From Folioceros fuciformis (taxonomy: Eukaryota), in contig JBNGIO010006235.1 in assembly GCA_049999805.1 (NCBI GenBank), positions 20,294 through 76,429 on the forward strand: 56,136 bases of DNA, read 5' to 3'. The translations under genes and the position numbers were made by a program. The notes below the pieces were generated by a model. That model was not told the origin of the DNA. It searched no databases and saw only the letters and a list, made by a program, of their open reading frames with translations. Shown here piece after piece: positions 5,501 through 56,136 of the stretch; position 1 is the stretch's first letter, and each line of letters opens with the position of its first letter.

Positions 5501-6402
5501 GGGTTCTGCCGGCTGCTCCTACTCTGTCCAAGCCTGCAGAGCTAGAGGACGACGTGACGATCTTTGTGCAAGGCAAGGCTGTCGAGAAGGAGTCAGGAGG
5601 GTGATCCCAATGTTATATAGTATTTTTTAACTCCTCATCCTTGTCGTTGGGGCAACGAATAAGTAGTGGGATCAAGAAGGTTGTGGCAAGTTAGCAGGTT
5701 TCATCCGCCGGTCAAATTTTGTACACATATAATTTATTCATTTTTGGTGGGGACGGGGTCCTTGACTCGCAGGCTGCTTCCTTTGATTCTGATTTTCTGT
5801 TCCTGTTTATACGAAGCTGTCCACTTCCTTGAGGGATGCTTGATGGCAAATTGAATATGTAGAGGAACCCAGGTGTGCAGAAGTCTGGTTCTGGCGTCGA
5901 GATGCATACAAGCCTGGGATTGGCTTTTTATTTTCTTTGAACTTATAATACCAGACAACATAGAGAACGAAGCAACGAGAGTTGGTCCATAGACGTCTGC
6001 GCAATGGAGATGAGCCTCCAGAGGGTCCACACTATGTAAAGACCTACTTGCTGTCCACTACACCTGACACAGTGTACACTGTTTAAGCTTGGAAAAACCC
6101 TTGCACTAAAAAAGGAAACTGGATTGTTGCACTTTCTCCCCTCGCCACACCCTTTCGGCGAGGAGCCTCCGTTCCGTTACATTTGGGGGTGGACCAAATT
6201 GCACCCTAGCGTCTGGGAGAGCGTGTTATGTGCCCGCCAGCTGCGACGACTCGCTGTGCGATGTTGATGCGAGCGTAACGGGAGCGTTGTGTCGTGTGGC
6301 GGCTATGGGAATGTGTGAAGAAGTGGCCCAACCCTAGAGCCGAGGCGATGGCAACAGTCTGAGTCTTGAGAGGAAATTTGGTGCAGGACAGGCGCTCCGG
6401 AG

Positions 6403-7513
6403 ATGCCTCCACGGAAGAGGCCAGCAGCAGCAGCGGCAGCGGCGGCAGAGGACGGGGATGCAGACGCGTCCACTTCCGCTCCAAAGAAGAAGCAACGGGG
6501 GGCAGGGGTGAAGAAGGAGGTGAAGACGAAGGAGAGGAAGAAGGAGGAGGTGAAGAAGAAGGAGGCGAAGTCAGTGGTGGAGAAGCGGGCCAGCCGGTAC
6601 ATCGCGTCTCCCAACGCGCAGACGCTGGAGAGAATTGAAAGGGCCTTCAGTCACCGTCTGTACCTGATTGACAAGGCGGTGGTTGGGGAGCCCGAGGCAC
6701 CCGAGGCATGCGAGTTCGTGGTCCTGGGGAACACGGGGAACGTGTACACTGTGAAGGTGCAAAAGAAGCCGCAGTGCACTTGCCCAGATTTCATGAGAGG
6801 CCATCTCTGCAAGCACTACCTCTTCGTCATGCTCAGGGTGCTCAAGCTGAAGACGGACGACCCTCGCATCTGGCAGAAGGCGCTGCTGTCCTCCGAGCTG
6901 TCAGAGCTGCTTACCAATCCTGCAGTCGGGGACGGTGTTCGCGCCAGCCACACTGTCATTGCACGCTTCCAGGAGATTACCGGTCGTAAAGTCTCAGGTA
7001 AATGGATTTGCATGCGACAATTGCTCCCCCCTTTGATGTACCTGTGGATGGGAGGAAGGAATAGTTTAGGGTTCGGCAACAATGACATGTGGGGACGGGG
7101 ATGTCGGTGGTGCAGGTGAGCTGGGCACATCGCAGGAGGACAACAGTAGCAAGGGCGTGCAGAGGCCGGTGGAAGGCGACTGTCCTGTTTGCTACGAGCC
7201 CCTGGTATCCACCACCAAGAAGAAGTCTGAGCCGGTGGTGTTCTGCAAGAGCTGTGGGAATAATGTGCACCGGGAGTGCTTCGAGCTATGGAGCAAGAGC
7301 AAGGGCAAGGGGAAGGTAACGTGCATCTACTGCAGAGCCGTGTGGGTGGACGAGTCCGTCTCTCTATCCGTCCCTTCCAAGGAGGGGCGAGGTGGCTTCG
7401 GAGCAGAGTATGTGAACCTGGCAGCCTATTCTGAGACCCACGCTGGGGCCGAGACCAGTTTGGAATCACTGTACCCGAACTCTCACGAGTTCATCAGGAG
7501 GAGGAGGAGGTAG
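6403..7513 (+). CDS. SWIM zinc finger + RING finger protein (ZSWIM2/MAP3K1 N-terminal-like); exons 6403-6997, 7116-7513
   Basis: SWIM motif VLGNTGNVYTV...CTCPDFMRGHLCKHYLFVMLRVL and RING motif CPVCYE...CKSCGNNVHRECFELW...CIYCR. The phase-1 GT-AG intron 6998-7115 joins the frames. Confidence 0.9.
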
Positions 7514-9328: not shown

Positions 9329-10543
9329 TCATACACCGGCCAAGGCCAGCTGCAGGCTGGAGAAGACGAGCAGAGAGAGCCAGGCGATGAAGGAGAGGCA
9401 GGGACGTGTAGAATGGCCGGCGCCATTGCCGCTGGGGCTGCTGACGGATGCGCTGGAGTCGCTGGCCGGGTAGGGGCAGCCGGCTGTGCTGGGATCGGTG
9501 TTGGTTGTGGTTGCTGTGCCGCTGAAATCGCATGTGGTGGACGCGAATCCGTGCGTCTGGTAGTAGGAGTTAAAGGCGTAGGAGGCGTGCGCCAGCAGAG
9601 TGTTGGGCGAGAAACAAGCCTGTCCTGATTGCAGAGGAGCGCAGTCCGCGCCTCCCGGGCCACACGCCCAGTTCAGCGCATCCAGCAGACTTTGGGAGTT
9701 GGCATTGCTCTTGGCGATACACCAGGTGCGCAGCGTCGCCAACTGCCTCCTCCTGCTCCCACTCTTGCTCTTTTTCAGGCTCCCACTCCCTGCCGCTGTT
9801 GTTGTGCCATGGACATCTTCATCTCCCGGCAATGCCAGAGAGAACGGAACGGTGCCACGGGCACGGAACCGTGAAGGCGAGGAAAAAGATGCTGCTTCTC
9901 GTGGGAGGCCGAAGGAGTTGGAGTCATGATTGTCCTCGCCGGATAGCGTGGGTGCACCTGAGGCAGCCTGAAGGGCGCAAAAGACAGCTACATTGTCCGG
10001 CGCCATCGCCAGCAGGTTGGACAAGGTCGACCCGACATTGGACAGGAGCAGCGATGGCGGCACGCGCAGCAACACCGCCGAGGAGCGGAAGGCGGAGGTT
10101 TCGGCCGCGCCCAGGCTGCCTGGCAAATGGAGGTGGAGCTTCGAGGCCGCTTCCTCCACTGCGTCACCCGCCATACCCTGGCGCAGCACAGACATCACCG
10201 ACAGCAGCTCGTTTCCGTACCAGGCATCCTCCTCGGCCGCCGCCCCGTGCTGCGTAACGGCACGGAGCCAAGCCATGGCGACCACGGGCTTCGCCATGCC
10301 CCCGCGGGGCACGGCGATCACCACTTGGTTTCCCTCCTCAGCGCAGGCCCGCAGCACAGGTGCATACTCCGGTCCTCGCAGCCCTCCCACCAGCAGCGCC
10401 GCAGCTCCGTCGCCATGGCCGGCGGACTCCTCAGCTCTGCCTCGTATTTTTGCCGCCGCCGCTTCCGCCCCCCTTGCCGGGCCCGGCCCCAGCAGGATCG
10501 CGGCTAGCAGCAGCAGCAGCGGCGGCGGCAGCGGCCGTTGCAT
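9329..10543 (-). CDS. Secreted, likely GPI-anchored X8 (CBM43) domain protein with a degenerate GH17-like N-terminal region; single exon, ~404 aa
   Basis: ATG at 10543 gives a signal peptide (MQRPLPPPLLLLLAAILLGPGPARG). X8 motif WCIAK...ALNWACGPGGADCAPLQSGQACFSPNTLLAHASYAFNSYYQ...CDFSGTA...DPS..GCPYP, followed by a hydrophobic C-terminus. Confidence 0.88.
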   Translation of the reverse strand: MQRPLPPPLLLLLAAILLGPGPARGAEAAAAKIRGRAEESAGHGDGAAALLVGGLRGPEYAPVLRACAEEGNQVVIAVPRGGMAKPVVAMAWLRAVTQHGAAAEEDAWYGNELLSVMSVLRQGMAGDAVEEAASKLHLHLPGSLGAAETSAFRSSAVLLRVPPSLLLSNVGSTLSNLLAMAPDNVAVFCALQAASGAPTLSGEDNHDSNSFGLPREAASFSSPSRFRARGTVPFSLALPGDEDVHGTTTAAGSGSLKKSKSGSRRRQLATLRTWCIAKSNANSQSLLDALNWACGPGGADCAPLQSGQACFSPNTLLAHASYAFNSYYQTHGFASTTCDFSGTATTTNTDPSTAGCPYPASDSSASVSSPSGNGAGHSTRPCLSFIAWLSLLVFSSLQLALAGV

Positions 10544-13399
10544 TGGCACTCCCTCGCTCTGAGCCGCTTGAGACGCTGGTGCTCCTGGGACGAGACGCGG
10601 ATGAGACGAGGCCTGGGGGGCGAGGCGAGGCGAGGCGGGGCGGGGCGGGATGCGAGACGGAAAGGCGAAACGCGAAGTCGCTCGATACGCGACTCTCTCA
10701 CGACTGGGGAATTGGAGTTTGAAGCGTGCGAGGGGAAGGCAGGCAGGGACCACAAGAGGGACTGTGGCTGGCTGGCTGGCTAGCTGGGCTGTCCCTGCCC
10801 TCTGCCCCTGCCTCTGCCTCTGCGTCTGCCCCTGCCCTCTGCCCCTGCCCGGCTGACAGATGAGAGAAGCGAGCGCCCAGCTCCTCCTACCTTGCTTGCT
10901 TGGCTGGCCCAAAGATCCCGCGCCCAATGTTGGGCCTGGGCCTGGGCCTGGGCCCGTCCCGCCCCGACCCGCCCGTAACGGATACCTTACAACGGGTGCC
11001 TGCCCACGCGCTGTATCTATTGGTTCTCTATGCTTCCTGAACTTTACCGCCTGCCCCGTTCTCACACACACAAACAGACAACGTAGCGATAAATTGCGCT
11101 TTCTTTCTTTCCTTCCTCGCTCCCCGCCTTCCAGCCCACTTTTATTGCTACCCACTCATTTGATCGAAGCTCTAGATCCGCCCCAAACCATGCCGCAGCA
11201 TCTGCTGCAACACCATCCGCATAGACTCGCTTCTTCTTCGTTCGTCTCTCCAATAAAATATTCAAATCAGTTGTATCATTAGAACACATTTGTACATCAA
11301 GACTGATTGCTTACTTAGCTGCGTTTCCAAGTACATGCAAATCTTCCAAGGGAACCTTCCATTTCAAGTACATTCATCCCAACAGCAAGTCTTGAGATGA
11401 AGATGGTTAAACATGCTTATGATACGTACTAGAAAGGAAAACAAATATAGTGTGGATAGAATGTACATAGTTCGAGTACTGGATTCTGAGTCACATTACA
11501 TATTGAAGTACATGCACGGCCCAAGCTACAGCTCGAAATCATCTTTTTCGCTTTGTACAACTATGTTTCTTAGACGCTTTGTACTACTATGTTTCTCAAA
11601 TTGGAAAACGATTCTTCGATTAGTTAGTTCTACTATTGTGTGACCGTATCAGACATACGAGACCATTGCATAGAGAACTTCAATAGTACATGAGAACAAG
11701 ACACCTTGAGAAGACAAAGTTTGACAAATCAAATTCTTTGCCCGTCTAGGTTTCGTGATCTATCAAATGAAAGGTACCAAATTCTTTTGCCCTTTTGGGC
11801 TTCATAAGCTATCAAATCAAGAGTACCCATATCTTGAGAGAAAGAGAGTGCATACATAAAACTGCTTACTGAACTTGAGACCTTGATAGGACAATATTGG
11901 AGGTACATGCAAATAAGAAACCTCGAGACAAAGTGTGCCAGAAGGACTTACATTCGAGAAAGCTCAAGTGCCATGTGTTGTAAGTTGTAGGACAAGGCCT
12001 TGAGTTGATGACTTTAGTACAAGACACATGTCATTCATTGATTGTTTGCGAGACCCCATGAGTCAAGCCGTATTTTTGTGTGGCTTATTGAGATAATGAG
12101 AAGGACGATGTAAACGATGAAGACGGAGATAGGATGAGAATTGAGATGCTTAAGAATATATGGGAGGATGGAAAAGCATAGTCCTTCACCAACCCGGCTT
12201 ATTGAAGTTGCAAGTTTAGGATTTCAAAATATTCTAAGAAACTTCTCCCACGAGATATCTGGTCCCGGTCGGGAATTTTCGGAGTAGCTGCCTGCCAAGA
12301 CTGAGGGAGAGAGATGAGGGTGACGGTGGCGAGGTGCGAGTCGCGAGGTTGGCGAGGTTGGCGGTGGGGTGGAGTGTCATAACTGTCGCGAGTCATGGTG
12401 CCGGGACCGGTTGACGGGCTATAGATAGTCTCCGCATTGTGTGTGGATTGTGCATTGCGCAGTGCGCATTGCGTTTGCTGTCTATTATTGTTTGATCCGG
12501 CAGGTTCCATCTTCGTTGTTGTTTGTTGGCTTGCCGTCCCGCCCGCCTTCGGTGGTGGTGGCGTGTGGCACCACGCGACACGGGAATCATCGCCCCCACG
12601 CGCCATACTCCTTTCGTGCTTCTGCTTTTTCCGCCGCACTCTTGAAACTGCGGTCCATGTCATCGCAGCCTTTGCGTTGTCGTCCAGGCACGGGATGCTC
12701 TTCTTGTTAAGTTGCTAAAAGGCAGATTTCGTGTGCCAAATCCTCCTTATCATGGGAGGGGCTTGCTGGAATGGTATCCCGTTTGCGCGCGCGTTACGTG
12801 CCCCGCGTTCGGAATGCCCTGCCCTGCCCGTCCACTCACCTTGTTGAAGAGGAGGTTGTACAAGTCATGTCTCCATTGTCGGCCGCAGTTTGATTTTCGG
12901 GTAGAGGTGTAGGATAGGGAAGAAGCCCTGTTGCAGTGTCGCCGGGGAAGGGCCCGGGCCGCTGTCGGTGGCCAGGTTTAGAGGGTGCTTCTGCTGCTGG
13001 TCGGCTCGTGAATCTTTTGATACTAAAGCAGCTTGGCTGTTTCTCCAAACAGATTCCTGCGTGCATCGAACCGATTGGCCTCATTTCACTCGCAAGACGT
13101 CGGAAACCTGATGAGACAAATACACTACGCCCCGTGGTGGTGTCTCTGCCAGTTGAGTGAACAGGCAATAGGTCCACCATGATGGAAAGTGAGCAAAGAG
13201 TTATGAAGCCAAAGTCCCCGACGCGAGTGAGTGCTCAGGCGCCGTATCTGACAGAGCTCGCAAGTATGCACGTGGACGTAAGCTAGGAGAGGGCGTGTGA
13301 TGGCGAACTCAGTGAGGGAGTTACGTATCGAACAAGGACTTGAAGCAGGAAGGCAGTCTGCGTTACGCACCTGCTCTCTGGCAGGAAGCTCTCTAGGTT

Positions 13400-24615: not shown

Positions 24616-24694
24616 ATTCTTCTACGCTCAGCGGCTGATCCGACCACCATTAACCATCGAACTTTGTTTGGTGTGCCTCTGATACTTCCTATGC

Positions 24695-25352
24695 TGCTGT
24701 AGCTCCGATACTTGCTCTTCTGCTGGAGCTTCAATATTAGCTCTGTTGGTGTGTAGCTCCGATACTTGCTCTTCTGCTGGAGCTTCAATTTTAGCTCTGT
24801 TGGTGTGTAGCTCCGATACTTGCTCTCCTGCTGTAGCTTCAGTATTAGCCCTGTTGGTGTGTAGCTCTTATACTTGCTCGCCTGCTGGAGCTTCAATATT
24901 AGCTCTGTTGGTGTGTAGATCCGATGCTTGCTCTCCTGCTGGAGCTTCAATATTAGCTCTGTTGGTGTGTAGCTCCGATACTTGCTCTCCTGCTTGTAGC
25001 TTCAGTATTAGCTCTGTTGGTGTGTAGCTCCGATACTTGCTCTCCTGCTGTAGCTTCAATATTAGGTATGTTGGTGTGTAGGTCCGATACTTGCTCGCCT
25101 GCTGTGCATAGGTTCAGTATTAGCTCTGTTGGTGTGTTACTCCGATACTTGCTCTCATACTTGCGCTCCTGCTGTAGCTTCAATATCAGCACTCTTGTTG
25201 TGTAAATCCGATACTTGCTCTATTGTTGTGTAAATCCGATACTTGCTCTGTTGTGGTGTAAATCCGATACGTGCTCTGTTGTTGTGTAAATCCGATACTT
25301 GCTCTGTGGTTGTGTAAATCCGATACTTGCTCTGTTGTTGTGTAAATCCGAT
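24695..25352. repeat. 54-bp minisatellite (~9 copies) grading into a related ~28-bp unit (~5-6 copies)
   Basis: Unit gtagctccgatacttgctctcctgctggagcttcaatattagctctgttggtgt, followed by gtaaatccgatacttgctctgttgttgt. Confidence 0.92.
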
Positions 25353-25390
25353 CCATACCCAGATATCAGGGCAGGACATGTTACCAGATC

Positions 25391-28977: not shown

Positions 28978-32159
<3,182 letters not shown>

Positions 32160-32585
32160 TTACGTGTATTTTTACATATATAGTTTTGACATAACTTCGA
32201 GAGTGTTTTAACTACCGATGGATAGTGAACTCTTAAACTACTTTATTTTAAGCATGACATCAGAATGCTAAACGGTCCCTAAGGAAAAACAGTGTGCGTT
32301 GATACAATATCATGCTTTAGGGTTTAGGGTTGTTACCGAAGATCACGCATACCATACTTATGAAATGCTGCCACCGGACAACTTACAGAGAAAAAGGTTG
32401 TTTGATTTGCCCACCCACAGCGCGCATACTTTTCCTAGACTGACGCCAGGTATGACTGTATGAACGTGCTTTACTATGAAGCAAACTTGTGTAGACAGCG
32501 TCACTGACGGAAGTGAAAAGTGATAAATACTCCTTACTGCGAAACACAGAACAGGGGAACACCACTTCGACTCCGGCATCCCAGC

Positions 32586-39325: not shown

Positions 39326-40403
39326 ATGGGACATTCTATCTATCTTACCCTAATATTTTGTTGGTGTTCAATTCATTTGACAGAAGCTCGACCCTATGTC
39401 ACATTGGACGTTCCTATAACAACACTTGATGTGGTGCCAACACTTGATTCTCCATCGATAATGGTCCCAACATTACCTGAAACAACACCTCCAGGAGACA
39501 TACCTCCCCCATCTATAAATGGAGCTCCAACACTTGATTCTCCAACAACAATGGTGCCAACATTACCTGACATAGTACCTCCAGGAGACATATCTCCTCC
39601 ATCCACATATGGAGCTCCACCATCATTTCCAACGCCACCTTCCCAAGATAGCCCTCCCTCTATGTGGAAAGATGAACTACCTTATGTTGTTTCACCACCT
39701 ATGGGAAAGTTTGGTGATTCCCCATTTAATGGAGAAATAGCACCATCTGTGTATGAAACGCCTCCCACTTATGAGTCACCTCCCATTGATTACTCTCCTC
39801 GCTTGTCTAACCCACCTCCTTTTTCTAGTCCATTCCCCACTTATTACTCTCCTCCTAGCTATGACTCACCTCTTGCTTACGAGCCACCTCCTTCTACTTC
39901 ATCTCCCACTTCTTACTCTCCTCCTACCTATGACNNNNNNNNNNNNNNNNNNNNNNNNNNNNNNNNNNNNNNNNNNNNNNNNNNNNNNNNNNNNNNNNNN
40001 NNNNNNNNNNNNNNNNNNNNNNNNNNNNNNNNNNTCTCCTCCTACCTATGACCCACCTCTTGCTTACGAGCCACCTCCTTCTTCTAATCCATCTCCCATA
40101 TATGACTCTCCTCCTACCTATGACCCACCTCTTGCTTACGAGCCACCTCCTTCTTCTAATCCATCTCCCTTTTATTACTCTCCTCCTACCTATGACCCAC
40201 CTCTTGCTTACGAGCCACCTCCTTCATCTAATCCATCTCCCACTTCTTACTCTCCCCACACCTATGACCCACCTCCTACTAACGAGCCACCTCCTTCTTC
40301 TAATCCATTGCCCACTTATTACTCTCCTCCTACCTATGACCCACCTTCTTATGAAAGCCCCCCAAATGAGAGCCCAGATTATGAACAACCAAGTGAAAGA
40401 TAA
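39326..40403 (+). CDS. Secreted Pro/Ser/Tyr-rich repetitive (extensin/PRP-like) protein; spans an assembly gap
   Basis: Signal peptide MGHSIYLTLIFCWCSIHLTEA, two 30-aa repeats, then a 24-aa (72-bp) repeat SPPTYDPPLAYEPPPSSNPSPxYY. Confidence 0.75.
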
Positions 40404-46761: not shown

Positions 46762-49700
46762 ATGGACAAGTATCTGTCCCGGAGCGTGTCGGATATCGGT
46801 GCATTCTCCCGGAACCTGCCGGACGCCCGTGTCGCCGGGGGAGGAGGCGGACCACCCGCTTCTAGGTTTCAGTGGAGCGGCGCCATGACGGCGGAGTCGG
46901 AGACGGATGCCAGCTCCGAGGACCTGCTGCACCATGTCGTCCCGGATGATGATGCGGAGACGGGGAGCTGGAAGACGCTTGCTTTTCTGTGGCTGGCCAG
47001 GTTGTTCCCTTGCGTCACCTGGCTCAGTGCCTACGATTTCGGCGCCTACTTCAAAACGGATTTGGTGGCAGGCATCACGGTCGGGACGATGATCGTTCCA
47101 CAGGTTGGTGCCTGCCACACCACGATGATGGTCTCTTGTTTCGCATGCCGAGTGAGCGAGGTCGGGGAAGAAGGATTGATCGTCTCCCTGGCAGCGACGG
47201 AATTTGCGGGCCCTCGATTTTGTATTTTGCTTTTTCCCGGATGGATATGTAACGAACTTGGTTGCAGACAGCTGGGGTCCGGTTTCCAGCTTCGCCTCGG
47301 CAGCCTAGTGCTGCGCCGGCAGGTCTGCGCAATTGCCCGCGTTTCTTTCGAGGAGATATGGCTAACCGGCTGTGTTGCTTGGCCGCAGGCTATGTCTTAC
47401 GCCAAGTTGGCTGGCCTTCCTCCGGCCCTTGGCCTGTGTAAGATCGCGAGACTGTTTGAGTTGTGTGACTTGTGTGTCAACTTCCGAGCAATCGCTGCCT
47501 GCCGGGCAGCCAGCTGGCTAGAGTTGCATTGTAGAGCTTAGGGGGATCGTGTGTCCCGGTCATTTGACGAGGGTGTGGATCGCCCCGACAACCTCCGACT
47601 CCGTCTGACGCCTTTGGCTGGACATGTTGTGTGACGATCACAGATTCGGGATTTGTTCCCATCATTGCGTACTCGATTTTCGGATCCTCCCGTCAAGCTG
47701 CAGTGGGACCGGTCGCTCTGGTATCGCTTCTCGTCTCCAATGGGCTGGCACCCATTATGGCCGCGGACACGATGCGACGCGAAGCGGAAACTACGCCTGA
47801 TCTGTATGCGCGGCTGGCGATACTTTTGGCTTTGATGGTAGGAGTGATCGAGTGCATTATGGGAGTCGCAAGGTAATGGTTGGGGGGCCGAACTTGGGTC
47901 TCGTTGTCTTCATCTTCTTATTCTGATGTGAATGCGGATGATGATGCGTCGTCTCTTGGTCCATTGCAGGCTGGGATGGCTGATTCGCTTCATCAGTCAT
48001 TCTGTCATTTCGGGGTTCACTTCTGGATCCGCTATCATCATCGGCCTATCTCAGGCCAAAAACTTCCTAGGGTACGACGTATCCTCCAGCAGCGAGCTCA
48101 TTCCTTTGATACGAAGTATTGTGGAAGGCTTTGACCAGGTACAGTTCCCTTGAGTTGGTTTAGCAGTTTCCATGGGTCTAGCAATACAAGCTGCTTGTCC
48201 TGCGGCAGTTCTTCTTCTAAATCTCTTCACTTGCTCCTTTTTTTTGCAGTTCCTTTGGCAGCCGTTTGTCATGGGTTTCGCTGTTCTGGGTCTATTACTG
48301 GGCATGAAACATGTGGTAGGTTTGTATTTCATTACTTGCTTTACTGTCTAAGGTTTGGTTAGTACTGGGTATCACAGTTTCCAAATCACAACCATTAAAC
48401 TTCATTCTCGTCCGCACGTTGCAAGAGTCCCGCCGTGAGCTTTCCTGCTCTTCGAATTTGTGGTATTATGCTCACTTGACAGAGTCTGTGCAAATGCAGG
48501 GAAAGTCCGACAAAAGATTCTTGTTTCTTCGTGCGGGTGGACCCTTGACGGCGTTGGTTCTGAGCACAGCATTTGTCAAAGTGTTTAGGCCTGCCTCTAT
48601 CAGTGTGGTGAGACTTGCTTCGCATCCGGTGCACGGGCCCCATAAGGTCGTGTAAAGACTACTTGTCTTATTTTATTTGGTTTTGAGTTGCAGGTTGGCT
48701 CAATTCCTAAGGGCCTCCCACCTTTCTCCTTGAACTACACCTTCGACCACGTGAAAGATTTACTTCCAACAGCATTTCTCATCGCTGGTGTCGCCATCCT
48801 GGTGATTTAATCAATTGCCTCGCTTGGAACTTATGCACCTTGAAAGCTGTCTACTACACCCGAGCACCTTTGATACCTGCATTGTAACTTGTTATGATTG
48901 TGGGCCCCTTGCTATCAGGAGTCTGTGGGGATAGCTAAGGCCTTGGCAAACAAAAATGGGTACGAGCTTGACTCGAACCGAGAGGTAGGTCCACCCACGA
49001 CCCTGAGGGCGCTGCTACCCTGCTGACCTCGACATCAGTTTGATGCTGGCTTCTTCTGCTTGTTGCTTCCCTTGTCTAACTAAAGCCAGGTTCTTTGTGT
49101 ATTTGCCAGCTCTTTGGACTAGGAGTGGCAAACGTTCTTGGGTCGGCATTTTCAGCCTATCCTGCCACAGGCAAGACAACATCACATTATCATGCCGCGA
49201 GATTTATGAGATTTCCATTTGCTGTCAAATCGGAGTGGCGATGTTTAAGTGGATAGAAATGTCTTTCATCCTCTTCGTTGTCCGAGTGATGATTGTGTGG
49301 GACTTATGTATGGCTGAAGTTTAGGTCAAGACACGTCGTCCACAAGATTTGTCTGGTGAAATGTGTTTTTCCTTTGCCAGACGTTACCATCAACTCTTCG
49401 TAGCTCAGTTTTTACCATGACACACGTTTGGCAGGGTCCTTCTCAAGATCGGCCGTCAATAACGACACTGGAGCCAAGACGGGAATTGCCTCCCTTGTAA
49501 CAGCTCTTATAGTCTGCTTGGCACTGCTGTTTCTGACACCACTGTTCACAGATATCCCGCAAGTGAGGCAGATTATCCACACCTTGCAGTAGACCTTGTG
49601 GTGCTGAGGATTTAGTTGTGAGCATTTGTTTTTACTGCATTTTAGGTTGCAAAGGCCTTCTTTCATGATTATGCGTGTACTTTCTCTGCAGTGTGCGTTG

Positions 49701-51199: not shown

Positions 51200-51513
51200 C
51201 TAATACTCTGAGTGAACCGGAGCTGCTGAATCGAAATCAACACAATGGCGGATCACGTAGAGGTATAACCTGTAATGTGTATTAAAGGAATCATTGGCCC
51301 TAAGCCGCACTATAGGCTACCGTTCCGTGATGGTAATTTATTTGCCCTCTGTGAAATGTAGTAGTGTTCATCGAATTTAGGATTGTATTTTATTTAGGAT
51401 CCCTTTAAATGAATAGACATTAGATTGGAGTCCTCTATTGATTCTTGCGCAATTGGCCTCAATCCCTCATTTGTGGAATATGGTGTATTTTTTAGTCCTC
51501 CGGCCCCCTCCGT

Positions 51514-52076
51514 AGAGCTAGATTGCTCATCAGTTGTTCCTATGCAACTAGATTGCTCATCAGTTGTTCCTATGTAGCTAGATTGCTCATCAGTTGTTCC
51601 TATGCAGCTAGATTGCTCATCAGTTGTTCCTATGCAGCTGTTCCTATGCAGCTAGATTGCTCATCAGTTGTTCCTATGCAGCTGTTCCTATGCAGCTAGA
51701 TTGCTCATCAGTTGTTCCTATGCAGCTGTTCCTATGCAGCTAGATTGCTCATCAGTTGTTCCTATGCAGCTGTNNNNNNNNNNNNNNNNNNNNNNNNNNN
51801 NNNNNNNNNNNNNNNNNNNNNNNNNNNNNNNNNNNNNNNNNNNNNNNNNNNNNNNNNNNNNNNNNNNNNNNNNGTTGTTCCTATGCAGCTAGATTGCTCA
51901 TCAGTTGTTCCTATGCAGTTGTTCCTATGCAGCTAGATTGCTCATCAGTTGTTCCTATGCAGTTGTTCCTATGCAGCTAGATTGCTCATCGGTTGTTCCT
52001 CCTATGCAACTAGATTGCTCATCAGTTGTCCCTATGCAGGAACTCTCCATAGAACTAGATTGCTCATCGGTTGTTC
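51514..52076. repeat. 30-bp minisatellite with a 14-bp internal duplication variant (44-bp units); contains a gap
   Basis: agctagattgctcatcagttgttcctatgc, with or without an extra agctgttcctatgc. Confidence 0.93.
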
Positions 52077-52239
52077 AGGGTTTAGGGTATGCAGGGACAA
52101 CTTGTTCGAATAAATTGTTGGACTTCGAGGTGTGGGTTAATTGAGATTTATGGATTGCATAATGTGGATTGGGTTTGAAGATTTTATTATTAATTTATAT
52201 ATCAATTGTGGCAGTTAGCTTGAAGATATATATTGGTCG

Positions 52240-53095
52240 TGGAACTTGTTTGAAGAAAACAATAGGAAATGAGAACAAGTATTGGGTTGTGTAAGTTTGC
52301 TTGAAGAAAAAGGTAGCAAATGAGAACACGAATTGGGTTGTGGAAGTTTGCTTGAAGAAAAAGGTAGGAAATGAGAACATGAGTTGGGTTGTGGAAGTTT
52401 GCTTGAAGGATAAGGTAGGAAATGAGAACAAATATTGGGTTGNNNNNNNNNNNNNNNNNNNNNNNNNNNNNNNNNNNNNNNNNNNNNNNNNNNNNNNNNN
52501 NNNNNNNNNNNNNNNNNNNNNNNNNNNNNNNNNNNNNNNNNNTTTGCTCAAAGAAAAAGGTAGGAAATGAGAACACGAGTTAGGTTGTGGAAGTTTTGCT
52601 TAAAGAAAAAGGTAGGAAATGAGAACAAGTATTGGGTTCTATAAGTTTGCTCAAGAAAAAGGTAGGAAATGAGAACATAAGTTGGGTTGTGGAAGTTTGC
52701 TTGAAGGAAAAGGTAGGAAATGAGAACAAGTATTGGGTTGTGTAAATTTGCTTGAAGAAAAAGGTAGGAAATGAGAATAAGTATTGGGTTGTGTAAGTTT
52801 GCTTGAAGAAAAAGGTAGGAAATGAGAACATGAGTTAGGTTGTGAAAGTTTGCTCGAAGGATAAGGTAGGAAATGAGAACAAATATTGGGTTGTGTAAGT
52901 TTGCTTAAAGAAAAAGGTAGGAAATGAGAACATGAGTTGAGTTGTGAAAGTTTGCTTGAAGAAAAAGGTAGGAAGTGAGAACAAGTATTGGGTTGTGTAA
53001 GTTTGCTTAAGAAAAAGGTAGCAAATGAGAACACAAGTTGGGTTGTGGAAATTTTCTTGAAGAAAAAGGTAGGAAATGAGAACAAGAATTGGGTA
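52240..53095. repeat. 51-bp tandem repeat, >=14 copies; contains a gap
   Basis: Unit ttgaagaaaaaggtaggaaatgagaacaagtattgggttgtgtaagtttgc. Confidence 0.93.
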
Positions 53096-53351
53096 ATTTT
53101 CTACTCTTGAAAAAGAGGTGCAAAGTTCTATTGACTCTAAAGATAGGAGGAACAACTCAAACACTAAAGATAGGAGAAATAACTAGAGGAAGACACAATA
53201 CCAAAAGGTGTACTAGTCCCTTTGAACATCATTCTCAAAACTATCTACTACTCCCTAAATATCATAATGTGGAATAACAAAAGGCTACTGATCACTAGTG
53301 TCGAAGAAGTTTCTTGACTTGCGGTAGTTGTTATTCTAAAGAGTACGGTTG

Positions 53352-54088
53352 TCAATGCTCTTCGAAAAGCAATGGATACACGTTGTCAAAAGAAGGCCAC
53401 CATAGAAAAAAAAGGAAGAACCCATTTCTATTACTATGATACACCTTTGTGCACTCCTTAATGAACCTTGAAAAGTCCATGCCAATCATCCCATTGGTCT
53501 CAAGAGCAAGAGGGATGAAAATATGCCCGTCTTGCAAGAGAGAATACTTATGGACTTTGGCTCTTGCACAACCCTTTGCCGTCCATCTAGAGGTGTTGAT
53601 GATGACATGCTTACAAATTGAATTCTTAGTGGGATCTATGACAACCACACTAGCTACATAAACTTGTTGCCCCCTAGTGAAAAAAGGGTCCGCTCTAAGT
53701 AAAACCCTATTGCACAAAGTATGGACGCTTACTATACGAAAGAATCCCACATTCCCTAGCCATTGAGAACATAACATCCTCAATTGCATCATGAGTGGCA
53801 ATGGGGTGCCCCTTGACGGAACAACAAGCCAAATGAGACCTTGTGTTGATAGCCTTATGTTGATAATGACAACCCCACAATTGCATGTAGAAAGAGAAAA
53901 AGCCAACGGATGGGCCAAACCTAAGCAGAATCTCATCATGGTGGCAAAAGTTGTTGGTGCGATTCGAAATGCCTGAATGTAAGCTCAAGGCCAAAACGCC
54001 AAGAGCCTACTCCTTTACTTGAATAAGCAAAATCTCATCATGGTGGCAAAAGTTGTTGGTGCGATTCGAAATGCCTGAATGTAAGCTC
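53352..54088 (-). mobile_element. CRE/R2-group non-LTR retrotransposon relic (Zn knuckle + restriction-like endonuclease)
   Basis: CNCG...HLACC...HDAIEDV, RAD...G...VVVIDP...AKVHKY...FIPLALETNG...FIKE across frameshifts. There is a ~62-bp internal duplication near 53925/54027. Confidence 0.7.
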
Positions 54089-54582
54089 TAAGAAATTACA
54101 TGCAGATGTAGATTTATTATAAAAATAACATTGTATATATTCAAGAAAAAGAGAGTAAGTAAAACATTAAAACTTAAACTTAACTATTCATGAATGGGTG
54201 TGACTATTACTAACAGTCGTAACCCTAGCGAAGAGGTAAGACATTTTAAACTATACACACAATATGAAACTGGATATAATATAACCCTAATCTCATTATG
54301 CCAACATCAATACTCCTTCACTCCCACTTGTTGGATTATGACGATTCGGACGTCTCCTCTTCGCCTTCTCTAACACGGGTCGAGTGTGAGACTGTGAGCT
54401 GAGCTGAAAGCTCCGCTGTGTGCATGTACTGGGTTGCGCCGACACCTTTGCCTTTAAAGAAACGCGATGGAGCGTATCTGCACAAACTTGGGTAGCAGGT
54501 GCGTCGCGACCCTTATAGCATCCCTCCTCGCTTCAAGTCCTTTATTTGTAAGCTGTTGGAGCGTAGGATCTCTGAGCTCAAG

Positions 54583-55453
54583 ATGTCGTCTTCAGCTACT
54601 GACTCCCCTCCTGCAAAGCGCCGTGTCTGCCATCGTGACAAGCTAGGGCGGTTTGTGAGCAAGCCGACTAGAACAGCCGCCTCCTCTCAGCAGCAAGGAT
54701 CGGCAAAGATGCCTGCTCCTGCTGCTCAAGGTGGCAGCGGCGGAAGGCGTTCGCGAGGGAGGCCGCGCGGCACCACCAAAGCTTTTCTTGATCAGCGGCG
54801 CTCGTCAGAGACTACAGCCTATAAGACAAAGGCTGCTGTTGCGTGTAAGGCAGCTCCCCGCAAGACGGCTACCCCTAAAGAGAAGTCTCTTTCAAGGGAT
54901 CAAAGTGCCAAGTTCCGCTTCAAAGCTGGTGAGTTCGCGTATGCTGATTCTGACTATAGGCCTACTGTGCCGATAAGATTTCCAGTTCCTACACACTCTG
55001 ATGAGGAAACCAAGATTGTGAGCCTTGGTTCTTTTGCTATTCCTTGTACCCCTCTGTGGTATAAGTGCCCTTACACCCATCTGAAGATGATACGAGTGAG
55101 GATAGAGCACTGCCGCGAGTATCAGCGCCATGTGGTCAGCTTTTACAGTAAGTGTTCCCTGTCTACTTTTATGTCAGCATCCCCATTGCTTTCTTCTCAC
55201 AGTTCTCTAACAAGCTCCCACTTGCCCTGCAGGATCTGAACTAAGGCTGGAGGAAGAGCACAGCCTTGAGACTGAGGAGAGGATCTCCTACGTGGAGCGT
55301 AGGAAGAGAAACTCTCCAAGATCGGATGAGAGCTTCACCACTCCTTCCGAACATGATCCTGATTCCTCTGAGCCTGATTCCTTTGGCAGTCGTGCAAGTG
55401 TGGCTGTAAATAGTGTGGAAGAAAACAGCGTAGACTGGGGATATGACTGGTAG
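54583..55453 (+). CDS. Putative spliced antisense gene inside the Copia 3' region, 261 aa; exons 54583-55147 and 55233-55453
   Basis: An 85-nt intron with GTAAGT donor, CTAAC branch point and CCCTGCAG acceptor joins two open frames in phase. Basic N-terminus (PPAKRR, RGRPRG) and acidic C-terminus. Confidence 0.62.
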
Positions 55454-55807
55454 TTTGGGTCACTAAACTGCAGGACTGAGGAAGTCATTCGGCTTCCCCA
55501 TTCCTAAACATTTCATGTGCCTCTCGTGCAGCTCCCTACCTAGGGCTTTTGTCATAATATCTGCTGGATTTTCTGCTGTTGGCACATACTCAAGTATAAC
55601 CTGTCCACTCTTAATCAAGTCTCTGATGAAATGATACTCCACCTCAACGTGTTTTGTCCGTGAGTGATGCACAGGGTTTTGTGCAAGGTTTATAGAACCC
55701 TGACTGTCTGTTTTGATCACTGTGCAGGTGGGGTGAGGTAGTCCGAGTTCATTGAAAAGCAGCTTGCACCAAGCAATTTCTTTAGAAGCGGCTGTGAGGA
55801 CACGGTA

Positions 55808-55824
55808 CCCTAAACCCTAAACCC
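55808..55824. repeat. Interstitial telomeric sequence CCCTAAACCCTAAACCC
   Basis: Perfect plant telomere repeats interrupt the Copia RNase H frame. Confidence 0.9.
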
Positions 55825-56136
55825 TTCTTTGCTTGAAAGAGCAACCGTTGGTTGCTTCTTGCTGGACCAACAGATTGGTCCCCCAGCAAACATGACGATA
55901 TATCCAGAGACAGATCTTCTACTGTCTATGTCACCAGCGTAGTCTGAATCGGTATATACATCCAGTTCAAGGGAGGCATCAGGTTTGTATTTGTAAACGA
56001 TTCCATACTGTGCTGTCCCCTTTAAGTATCGAAATACCCTCTTAACACAAGTCCAGTGCTCCTGTGCAGGGTTTTCCAAGTATTGTGAGAGCACACTTGT
56101 GGAATATGCCACTTCAGGACGAGTAGTGTTTGCTGC

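Follow-up and report, generated by a model that had tools for sequence, protein, structure and literature searches.

The analysed window is a 56,136-nt stretch of DNA from Folioceros fuciformis (contig JBNGIO010006235.1 of assembly GCA_049999805.1, positions 20,294 to 76,429 of the forward strand), and all coordinates given here count from its first letter. At its right-hand end the window contains the 3' part of a Ty1/copia long terminal repeat (LTR) retrotransposon lying on the minus strand, and inside this element, between the stop codon of pol and the polypurine tract (PPT) with the adjoining 3' LTR, an extra open reading frame (ORF) runs on the plus strand, antisense to pol. The extra ORF consists of exon 1 (54583-55147, 565 nt, 188 codons plus 1 nt), a candidate intron of 85 nt (55148-55232) and exon 2 (55233-55453, 221 nt), which encodes an acidic tail rich in Ser, Glu and Asp and ending in DWGYDW ahead of the stop codon at 55451-55453. 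When recomputed from the sequence, the joined exons (786 nt) give 261 codons plus one stop, which is terminal, as the first-pass annotation of this DNA had claimed for the frame after removal of the intron. The signals GTAAGT...CTAAC...CAG that it had listed can likewise be read in the candidate intron, with CTAAC at 55207-55211, 18 nt ahead of the final CAG, and a pyrimidine-rich 3' part. Without splicing, the frame of exon 1 stops at 55237-55239, 5 nt beyond the acceptor. The ATG at 54583 has an A at -3, and the internal region on its 5' side (54330-54582 on the plus strand, with a guanine plus cytosine (GC) content of 52%) is a candidate promoter and 5' untranslated region. The stop codons of the extra ORF and of pol lie on opposite strands with 9 nt between them (earlier estimated at about 10), and the distance from the pol stop to the PPT, earlier put at about 1.1 kb, measures 1133 nt (54330-55462).

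The pol gene is represented by two minus-strand pieces in different frames. One covers the RNase H region and runs past the window end (55813-56136), and the other holds the C-terminal 113 codons and the stop (55463-55804, stop at 55463-55465). With the frames 55813-56136 and 55466-55804 as queries, 1070 of 1159 candidate proteins matched at E ≤ 1e-5, many of them carrying the RVT_2, rve and gag-copia Pfam families and names of the TNT 1-94 type. Compared with P0017, a Copia polyprotein of 1326 aa in which rve (502-602) stands ahead of RVT_2 (832-1072), the two pieces correspond to residues 1105-1207 and 1214-1322, and they show 70% and 69% identity to residues 43-151 and 150-260, respectively, of a 264-aa protein (P0005). 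Because they match the last approximately 220 residues of Copia polyproteins and reach to within 4 residues of the end, pol terminates here at its usual place. The frame break between the pieces falls between P0005 residues 150 and 151 and coincides with a 17-mer resembling plant telomere sequence within the RNase H coding region (55808-55824; two CCCTAAA units plus CCC), which matches once in the window and in none of 100 shuffles. Since the high-depth contigs described below differ from the window at precisely this 17-mer (11 letters fewer and a few C to G changes), the break appears to be either a lesion private to this copy or an artefact of assembly or polishing.

On the other side of the extra ORF the PPT AAGTGGGAG is found on the minus strand at 54321-54329, directly followed by TG (54329-54319 read on the minus strand). 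It is of the same type as the AAGtGGGAGAt tabulated for the jatropha Copia families Jc4, Jc5 and Jc7 in the accessible text of PMC3852365 (Table 1). The 3' LTR occupies 54089-54320 on the minus strand (232 bp, edges ±2 nt); it starts with TG, its 3' end reads ...TTA and not the usual ...CA, and it is AT-rich, with 27.6% GC over 54089-54309 versus the 52% of 54330-54582. For the outer edge we used contigs from two read runs (X1 and X2) of one sample, which are not independent of each other and are probably the source of the assembly itself. In contigs of other copies, three from each run, the match switches partner at 54089: to the right of this position they follow the window, and the consensus of the letters before it (agreement 0.71) ends in GCTCTGATACCA, the complement of the primer binding site (PBS) TGGTATCAGAGC. 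This PBS for the methionine transfer RNA (tRNA) is reported for all nine jatropha Copia families in the text available of PMC3852365. Judged by this sequence match, the GCTCTGATACCA-bearing contigs are 5' LTR/PBS junctions of other copies, and because they abut 54089, the LTR is placed at 54089-54320 and full elements with a PBS exist. The inner edge is seen in an exact-match contig whose first letter is 54292, which is 30 letters into the LTR from its border with the PPT, and since abutting contigs of the word graph overlap by 30 letters, such a start fits the edge of a repeat. An alternative LTR at 54054-54306 (TGTTGG...CCAACA) was dropped, as 54024-54088 belongs to the neighbouring repeat and contigs switch partner at 54085-54089. 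The Copia architecture with an antisense ORF between pol and the PPT, as put forward in the first-pass annotation, is thus borne out by the PPT, the LTR, the PBS junction contigs and, as shown in the following, by linkage to pol and multi-copy depth; a 5' LTR is seen in the contigs of other copies, while that of the present copy lies past the window end.

The extra ORF and pol travel together at high depth. In X1, contigs identical to the window cover 54292-54550, 54639-54896 and 55040-55322 at depths of 230.8, 183.6 and 227.4, respectively, and a further identical contig (55293-55647, depth 204.9) bridges both stop codons and so links exon 2 to pol. The X1 contig covering pol (55649-56005, depth 204.2) departs from the window at the 17-mer only (4 letters, 11 gaps). 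In X2 the same pieces have depths of 99-179, and one contig of 1216 nt extends 619 nt past the window end. Dozens of contigs in the same runs have depths of 8-15; diverged exon-1 copies as well as single joints within the neighbouring repeat are among them. One depth of about 180-230, approximately 20 times that of the low-depth contigs, holds for the extra ORF, for its junction with pol and for pol itself. The LTR bins are 535-963 deep against about 240-330 in the internal region, a 2- to 4-fold excess as expected from two LTRs per element plus solo LTRs. These depths suggest to us that one unit, holding both pol and the extra ORF, is present in about 15-25 near-identical copies, with the caveat that contig depth is not copy number and that no single-copy stretch serves as yardstick. 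The first-pass annotation had itself named the case that would overturn it, a host gene present in single copy that happens to border on a truncated Copia fragment. Such a gene would sit well with a window that holds just the 3' end of the element and with a pol frame that is broken at 55808-55824 in this copy, but it does not fit a depth of about 200 for ORF, junction and pol alike versus 8-15 for many contigs, nor the PPT and LTR on the side of the ORF opposite pol, the LTR/PBS junction contigs, and the existence of diverged extra copies of exon 1. We regard it as close to refuted, and it is very probable that elements of this Copia family regularly carry the extra ORF in their interior.

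The diverged copies carry some information on the reading frame as well. Three contigs at approximately 10% divergence lie over exon 1, with 39 mismatches in 376 nt, 31 in 324 nt and 44 in about 305 nt and with 0, 0 and 15 gapped letters, and a fourth (55029-55318) spans the intron with 25 mismatches and 1 gap. All three exon-1 contigs have gap totals that are multiples of three, a hint that the frame has been maintained. No part of 54000-56136 recurs elsewhere in the window, except for a 65-nt duplication in the flank, and the window has no tRNA gene. A further run under the same species label (X4, guessed to be RNA) gave two contigs that fall on the neighbouring repeat and left 54155-56136 uncovered, a result that carries no weight in either direction. 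Contig joints at 55069/55470 (depths 11 and 9) and 55607/55826 (66 and 41) skip 400 and 218 nt of the element; like a joint skipping 800 nt that is considered below, all with short sides of 22-48 letters, they may represent internal-deletion variants.

Turning to the coding signal, when 54321-55462 was shuffled 2000 times with dinucleotides preserved, just 3 shuffles contained a frame as long as the stop-free one of 247 codons at 54496-55239. Read in the sense direction, the stretch from pol to the PPT has no frame of more than 93 codons. The frame of exon 2 is open from 55211 only (81 codons) and is weak evidence taken alone. The three-signal intron pattern, which was defined post hoc after the instance had been seen, has one occurrence in the 56-kb window, against an expectation of 0.09, and 7 of 100 shuffles contain it at least once. 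At 85 nt the candidate intron falls within the range of the gaps (about 50-105 nt) between the Pfam-mapped exons of a host methionyl-tRNA synthetase gene in the same window, and judged by those gaps its length is ordinary for the host genome. The view that there is no gene, and that the open frame and the splice-like signals arose by chance, finds some room in the unremarkable second exon, in the post hoc pattern that 7 of 100 window shuffles match somewhere, and in the low recognition value from the protein atlas given below. It has to contend with a frame length reached in 3 of 2000 shuffles and with an intron placed exactly at the end of that frame, 5 nt before the stop at 55237-55239, and we consider it very unlikely.

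The predicted protein of 261 aa has an uneven charge distribution, with a net charge of +20 over residues 1-110, +4 over residues 111-190 and -11 over residues 191-261. Its N-terminal half is basic, rich in Ser, Ala, Pro and Arg, of low complexity and disordered-looking, and includes a PPAKRR resembling a nuclear localization signal. The remaining sequence features named in the first-pass annotation are present too: exon 1 carries, besides PPAKRR, the motifs RDKLGRF and RGRPRG and a Cys/His stretch, while the acidic tail is encoded by exon 2. The AT-hook is built on an R-G-R-P core with basic flanks. By this definition the RGRP core of GRRSRGRPRGTTK (residues 53-65), which stands between arginines, is AT-hook-like; Pfam calls no AT_hook there at E ≤ 1. 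The Cys/His stretch, C-x6-C-x3-H-x9-HC-x5-H, lies in a region with beta prediction at about residues 128-187. Folding and homology searches used the translations of the single exons, not the spliced 261-aa protein. The structure prediction proposed in the first-pass annotation was carried out with AlphaFold on exon 1 as a single sequence and gave a poor model (mean predicted local distance difference test (pLDDT) 44.9, predicted template modelling score 0.18), which suggests only a small hairpin near RDKLGRF (pLDDT 67-69) and beta strands in residues 128-187.

The homology searches with exon 1 were uniformly negative. The word-index protein search gave 95 candidates of near length with none at E ≤ 0.01, and 5 candidates among shorter proteins with no match. 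None of 94 pattern matches in metagenome contigs and none of 5 in viral contigs was confirmed, the protein atlas returned no usable match for either the whole exon-1 protein or residues 105-188, and the PDB sequences offered just three designed ankyrins (E 0.04-0.12). Two phmmer matches were dismissed as repeat proteins in which a short match is summed over 14 and 4 stretches. BLASTP of exon 1 against the full Copia polyprotein gave no match, and 11 metagenome Copia loci fetched by their pol tail (31-53% identity) contain nothing resembling the ORF (best tblastn E 6.7). As far as sequence comparison goes, the predicted protein is an orphan across all libraries searched.

Starting from the observed ORF with its splice signals, its position in the element, its linkage to pol and its multi-copy state, we infer transcription, splicing, localisation, DNA binding and a role of the product as follows. 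The reading that we favour, at somewhat better than an even chance, is that the extra ORF is an antisense accessory gene of a Copia element amplified not long ago, and that this gene is transcribed, spliced and encodes a nuclear, DNA-contacting regulator of the element. Transcription would proceed rightwards on the plus strand from the approximately 250-nt internal region 5' of the ATG, or from the AT-rich 3' LTR, and the transcript would be spliced at 55147/55233 and translated into the 261-aa protein. The basic N-terminus could then direct nuclear entry and the AT-hook-like RGRP core could contact DNA, for which the 28%-GC LTR of the element itself is a candidate target, while the acidic C-terminal tail might recruit or deflect host factors and thereby control the transcription or the chromatin state of the element. 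The genomic RNA of the element is the complementary strand, in which the intron signals are reverse-complemented and unspliceable. Because the replicative RNA is this complementary strand, the intron is copied into every new insertion. The first-pass annotation had argued that reverse transcription of the sense RNA leaves an antisense intron in place, and this argument is sound as logic.

A bolder version of this scheme, to which we give only a small chance, is that the element encodes a sequence-directed anti-silencing or chromatin factor, i.e. an AT-hook-bearing nuclear protein that sits on the AT-rich LTRs and whose acidic tail keeps the copies transcribable. The protein would then do for a retrotransposon what anti-silencing proteins do for some plant DNA transposons, and the intron could mark the antisense mRNA as a spliced, host-like message. 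At its end the acidic tail has a Trp-Gly pair, a feature also of Argonaute-binding hooks.

The plus-strand transcript might alternatively act as RNA, pairing with the genomic RNA and feeding or tuning small-RNA silencing, with the frame being incidental. Noncoding antisense transcripts and promoters are known in several retrotransposons, and regulation through double-stranded RNA has been proposed for antisense extra ORFs (PMC7264820, in its accessible part). The convergent layout, in which plus-strand read-through enters pol, points in the same direction. For a role of the RNA only, however, the 247-codon frame and the consensus intron would be superfluous, and the gap totals of the diverged exon-1 contigs would have no reason to be multiples of three throughout; we consider this explanation improbable.

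It is a more serious matter whether the ORF does anything at all. A passenger ORF, either a captured piece of a host or foreign gene or a frame that arose de novo in the master copy of a recent burst, could be functionless and yet intact in approximately 20 young copies. That the copies are near-identical and the exact-match contigs deep would follow from such a burst, and the absence of homologues and of a recognisable domain, the low-complexity, disordered-looking N-terminal half with its poor fold (pLDDT 44.9), the flat GC content by codon position and a possible deletion variant devoid of exon 1 all agree with it; transduction is moreover discussed as one origin of extra ORFs in the accessible text of PMC7264820. 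Against it stand the completeness of the gene, which has a start codon, an intron of consensus type and a stop codon 9 nt away from that of pol, a frame of a length that only 3 of 2000 shuffles attain, and the diverged exon-1 contigs with their 0, 0 and 15 gapped letters. Furthermore, 15 billion proteins yielded no parental host family, although one would probably be seen there after capture from a conserved host gene. We judge a passenger to be unlikely, while ranking it as the foremost rival of the accessory gene.

Several observations weigh against an accessory gene. The case for frame maintenance is built on the mismatch and gap totals of three contigs, which could belong to a parental gene, and because the copies may all be young, an intact frame says little about selection. 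The GC content per codon position of the extra ORF is flat (0.53/0.55/0.50), unlike that of pol or of host ORFs, and the upstream ATGs at 54338, 54424 and 54467 would burden any transcript initiated in the LTR. There is no Pfam family for either exon translation, AT_hook included (E ≤ 1), exhaustive phmmer of 1.84 billion representatives gave no relative of exon 1, and the recognition value of the exon-1 protein in the protein atlas is low (1576). One contig per run joins 54333 to 55134 (depths 104.8 and 77.1) with a short side of 22 letters; if real, this joint would define a sub-family devoid of most of exon 1, but with so short a side and a likeness threshold of 80% it may be an alignment artefact. 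Finally, the 5' half of the element lies past the window end (56136), so that gag, the integrase and the reverse transcriptase of this copy are unseen. With all of this taken into account, the balance still tips, by a limited amount, towards the extra ORF being a working protein-coding gene of the element.

The layout as such has precedents. Antisense ORFs between pol and the 3' LTR ('aORF-3R') are described for gene23 of Grande (maize), RIRE2 (rice), Retand (Silene) and PvRetro13 (bean) together with 14 related bean families in the accessible parts of PMC7264820 and PMC4093653. According to the same parts, these extra ORFs of Ty3/gypsy elements show no database similarity, and for Grande a nuclear product and a promoter of its own are described. 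The present element has in common with them the position between pol and the PPT/3' LTR, the antisense orientation, a long 3' internal region and the lack of known protein relatives. It differs in class, as the plant examples named there, including the 15 antisense bean families (PMC4093653, accessible part), are all Ty3/gypsy while the element described here is Ty1/copia. It also differs in its candidate intron, whereas no intron is mentioned for those ORFs in the text available of PMC7264820 and PMC11963269; the likeness is one of layout.

Within Ty1/copia, extra ORFs at the same site are known in sense orientation, namely the env-like ORFs of SIRE-type elements and of the bean elements pvRetro3 and pvRetro4 (PMC4093653 Table 2, as far as accessible). 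Those are sense and envelope-like, whereas the one analysed here is antisense, with a basic and an acidic part and no transmembrane-looking stretch. A layout analogy also exists outside plants. The antisense gene of human T-cell leukemia virus type 1 gives a spliced mRNA that encodes a nuclear regulator. Both there and here antisense coding occurs near the 3' end, and in the virus the promoter lies in the 3' LTR (PMC7264820, accessible text). Since a vertebrate retrovirus is compared with an element of the Pseudoviridae type, the analogy is one of layout and implies no homology. Antisense transcription from within LTR retrotransposons is a further point of contact. AtRE1 and Mdoryco1-1 are Copia-type elements. 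Antisense promoters are reported for both of them, and antisense RNAs devoid of coding capacity for micropia, in the accessible text of PMC7264820, whereas here a 261-codon frame and a candidate intron are present. In the open literature, including the available text of PMC7264820, PMC4093653, PMC11963269, PMC8220671 and PMC12477816 and with subscription journals and supplements outside the scope, we found no antisense extra ORF in a Copia element, nor an intron-bearing one. By this comparison the layout is known from Ty3/gypsy elements, and its occurrence in Copia together with a candidate intron appears to be what is new.

The remainder of the window is of a different nature. The Copia LTR adjoins, at 54089, a very abundant repeat (53300-54088) with a summed contig depth of up to 4771, which contains a 210-codon minus-strand frame without a Pfam match (53352-53984) and a 102-nt internal duplication (53922-53986 equals 54024-54088 at 98%). 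Further to the left, tandem repeat blocks broken by runs of N are seen at 51486-52067 (units of approximately 30 and 44 nt) and 52195-53097 (51 nt), and 51486-53097 is probably a satellite-like array that the assembly did not close. The methionyl-tRNA synthetase gene mentioned above lies on the minus strand at 29400-32200 with at least seven Pfam-mapped exons and several gaps of about 50-105 nt. Other coding features are a minus-strand ORF of 608 codons with an X8 domain (9329-11155), a plus-strand ORF with a SWIM zinc finger, possibly transposase-derived (6370-7119), and a plus-strand sulfate-permease fragment (46762-47541). The X8-domain ORF, the plant-type PBS for the methionine tRNA and the 17-mer of TTTAGGG type indicate a host of the plant lineage. 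Tandem arrays with periods of 54 and 28 nt (24644-25365) and of 18 nt (39776-40394) lie within long open frames and have the look of repetitive coding sequence.

Antisense extra genes are widespread in plant Ty3/gypsy elements, and no function is known for any of them. With its approximately 20 near-identical copies and an antisense gene of 871 nt, this compact Copia family is a convenient case for study. The candidate intron provides an unambiguous RNA signature, in that a single read across the 55147/55233 junction would prove independent antisense expression. It is at the same time a built-in strand marker: that it is still there in retrotransposed copies shows the gene to lie on the strand opposite to that of the RNA intermediate. 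Should the protein indeed regulate the element, the idea of accessory genes would be extended from the retroviruses and the Ty3/gypsy elements to the Ty1/copia elements.

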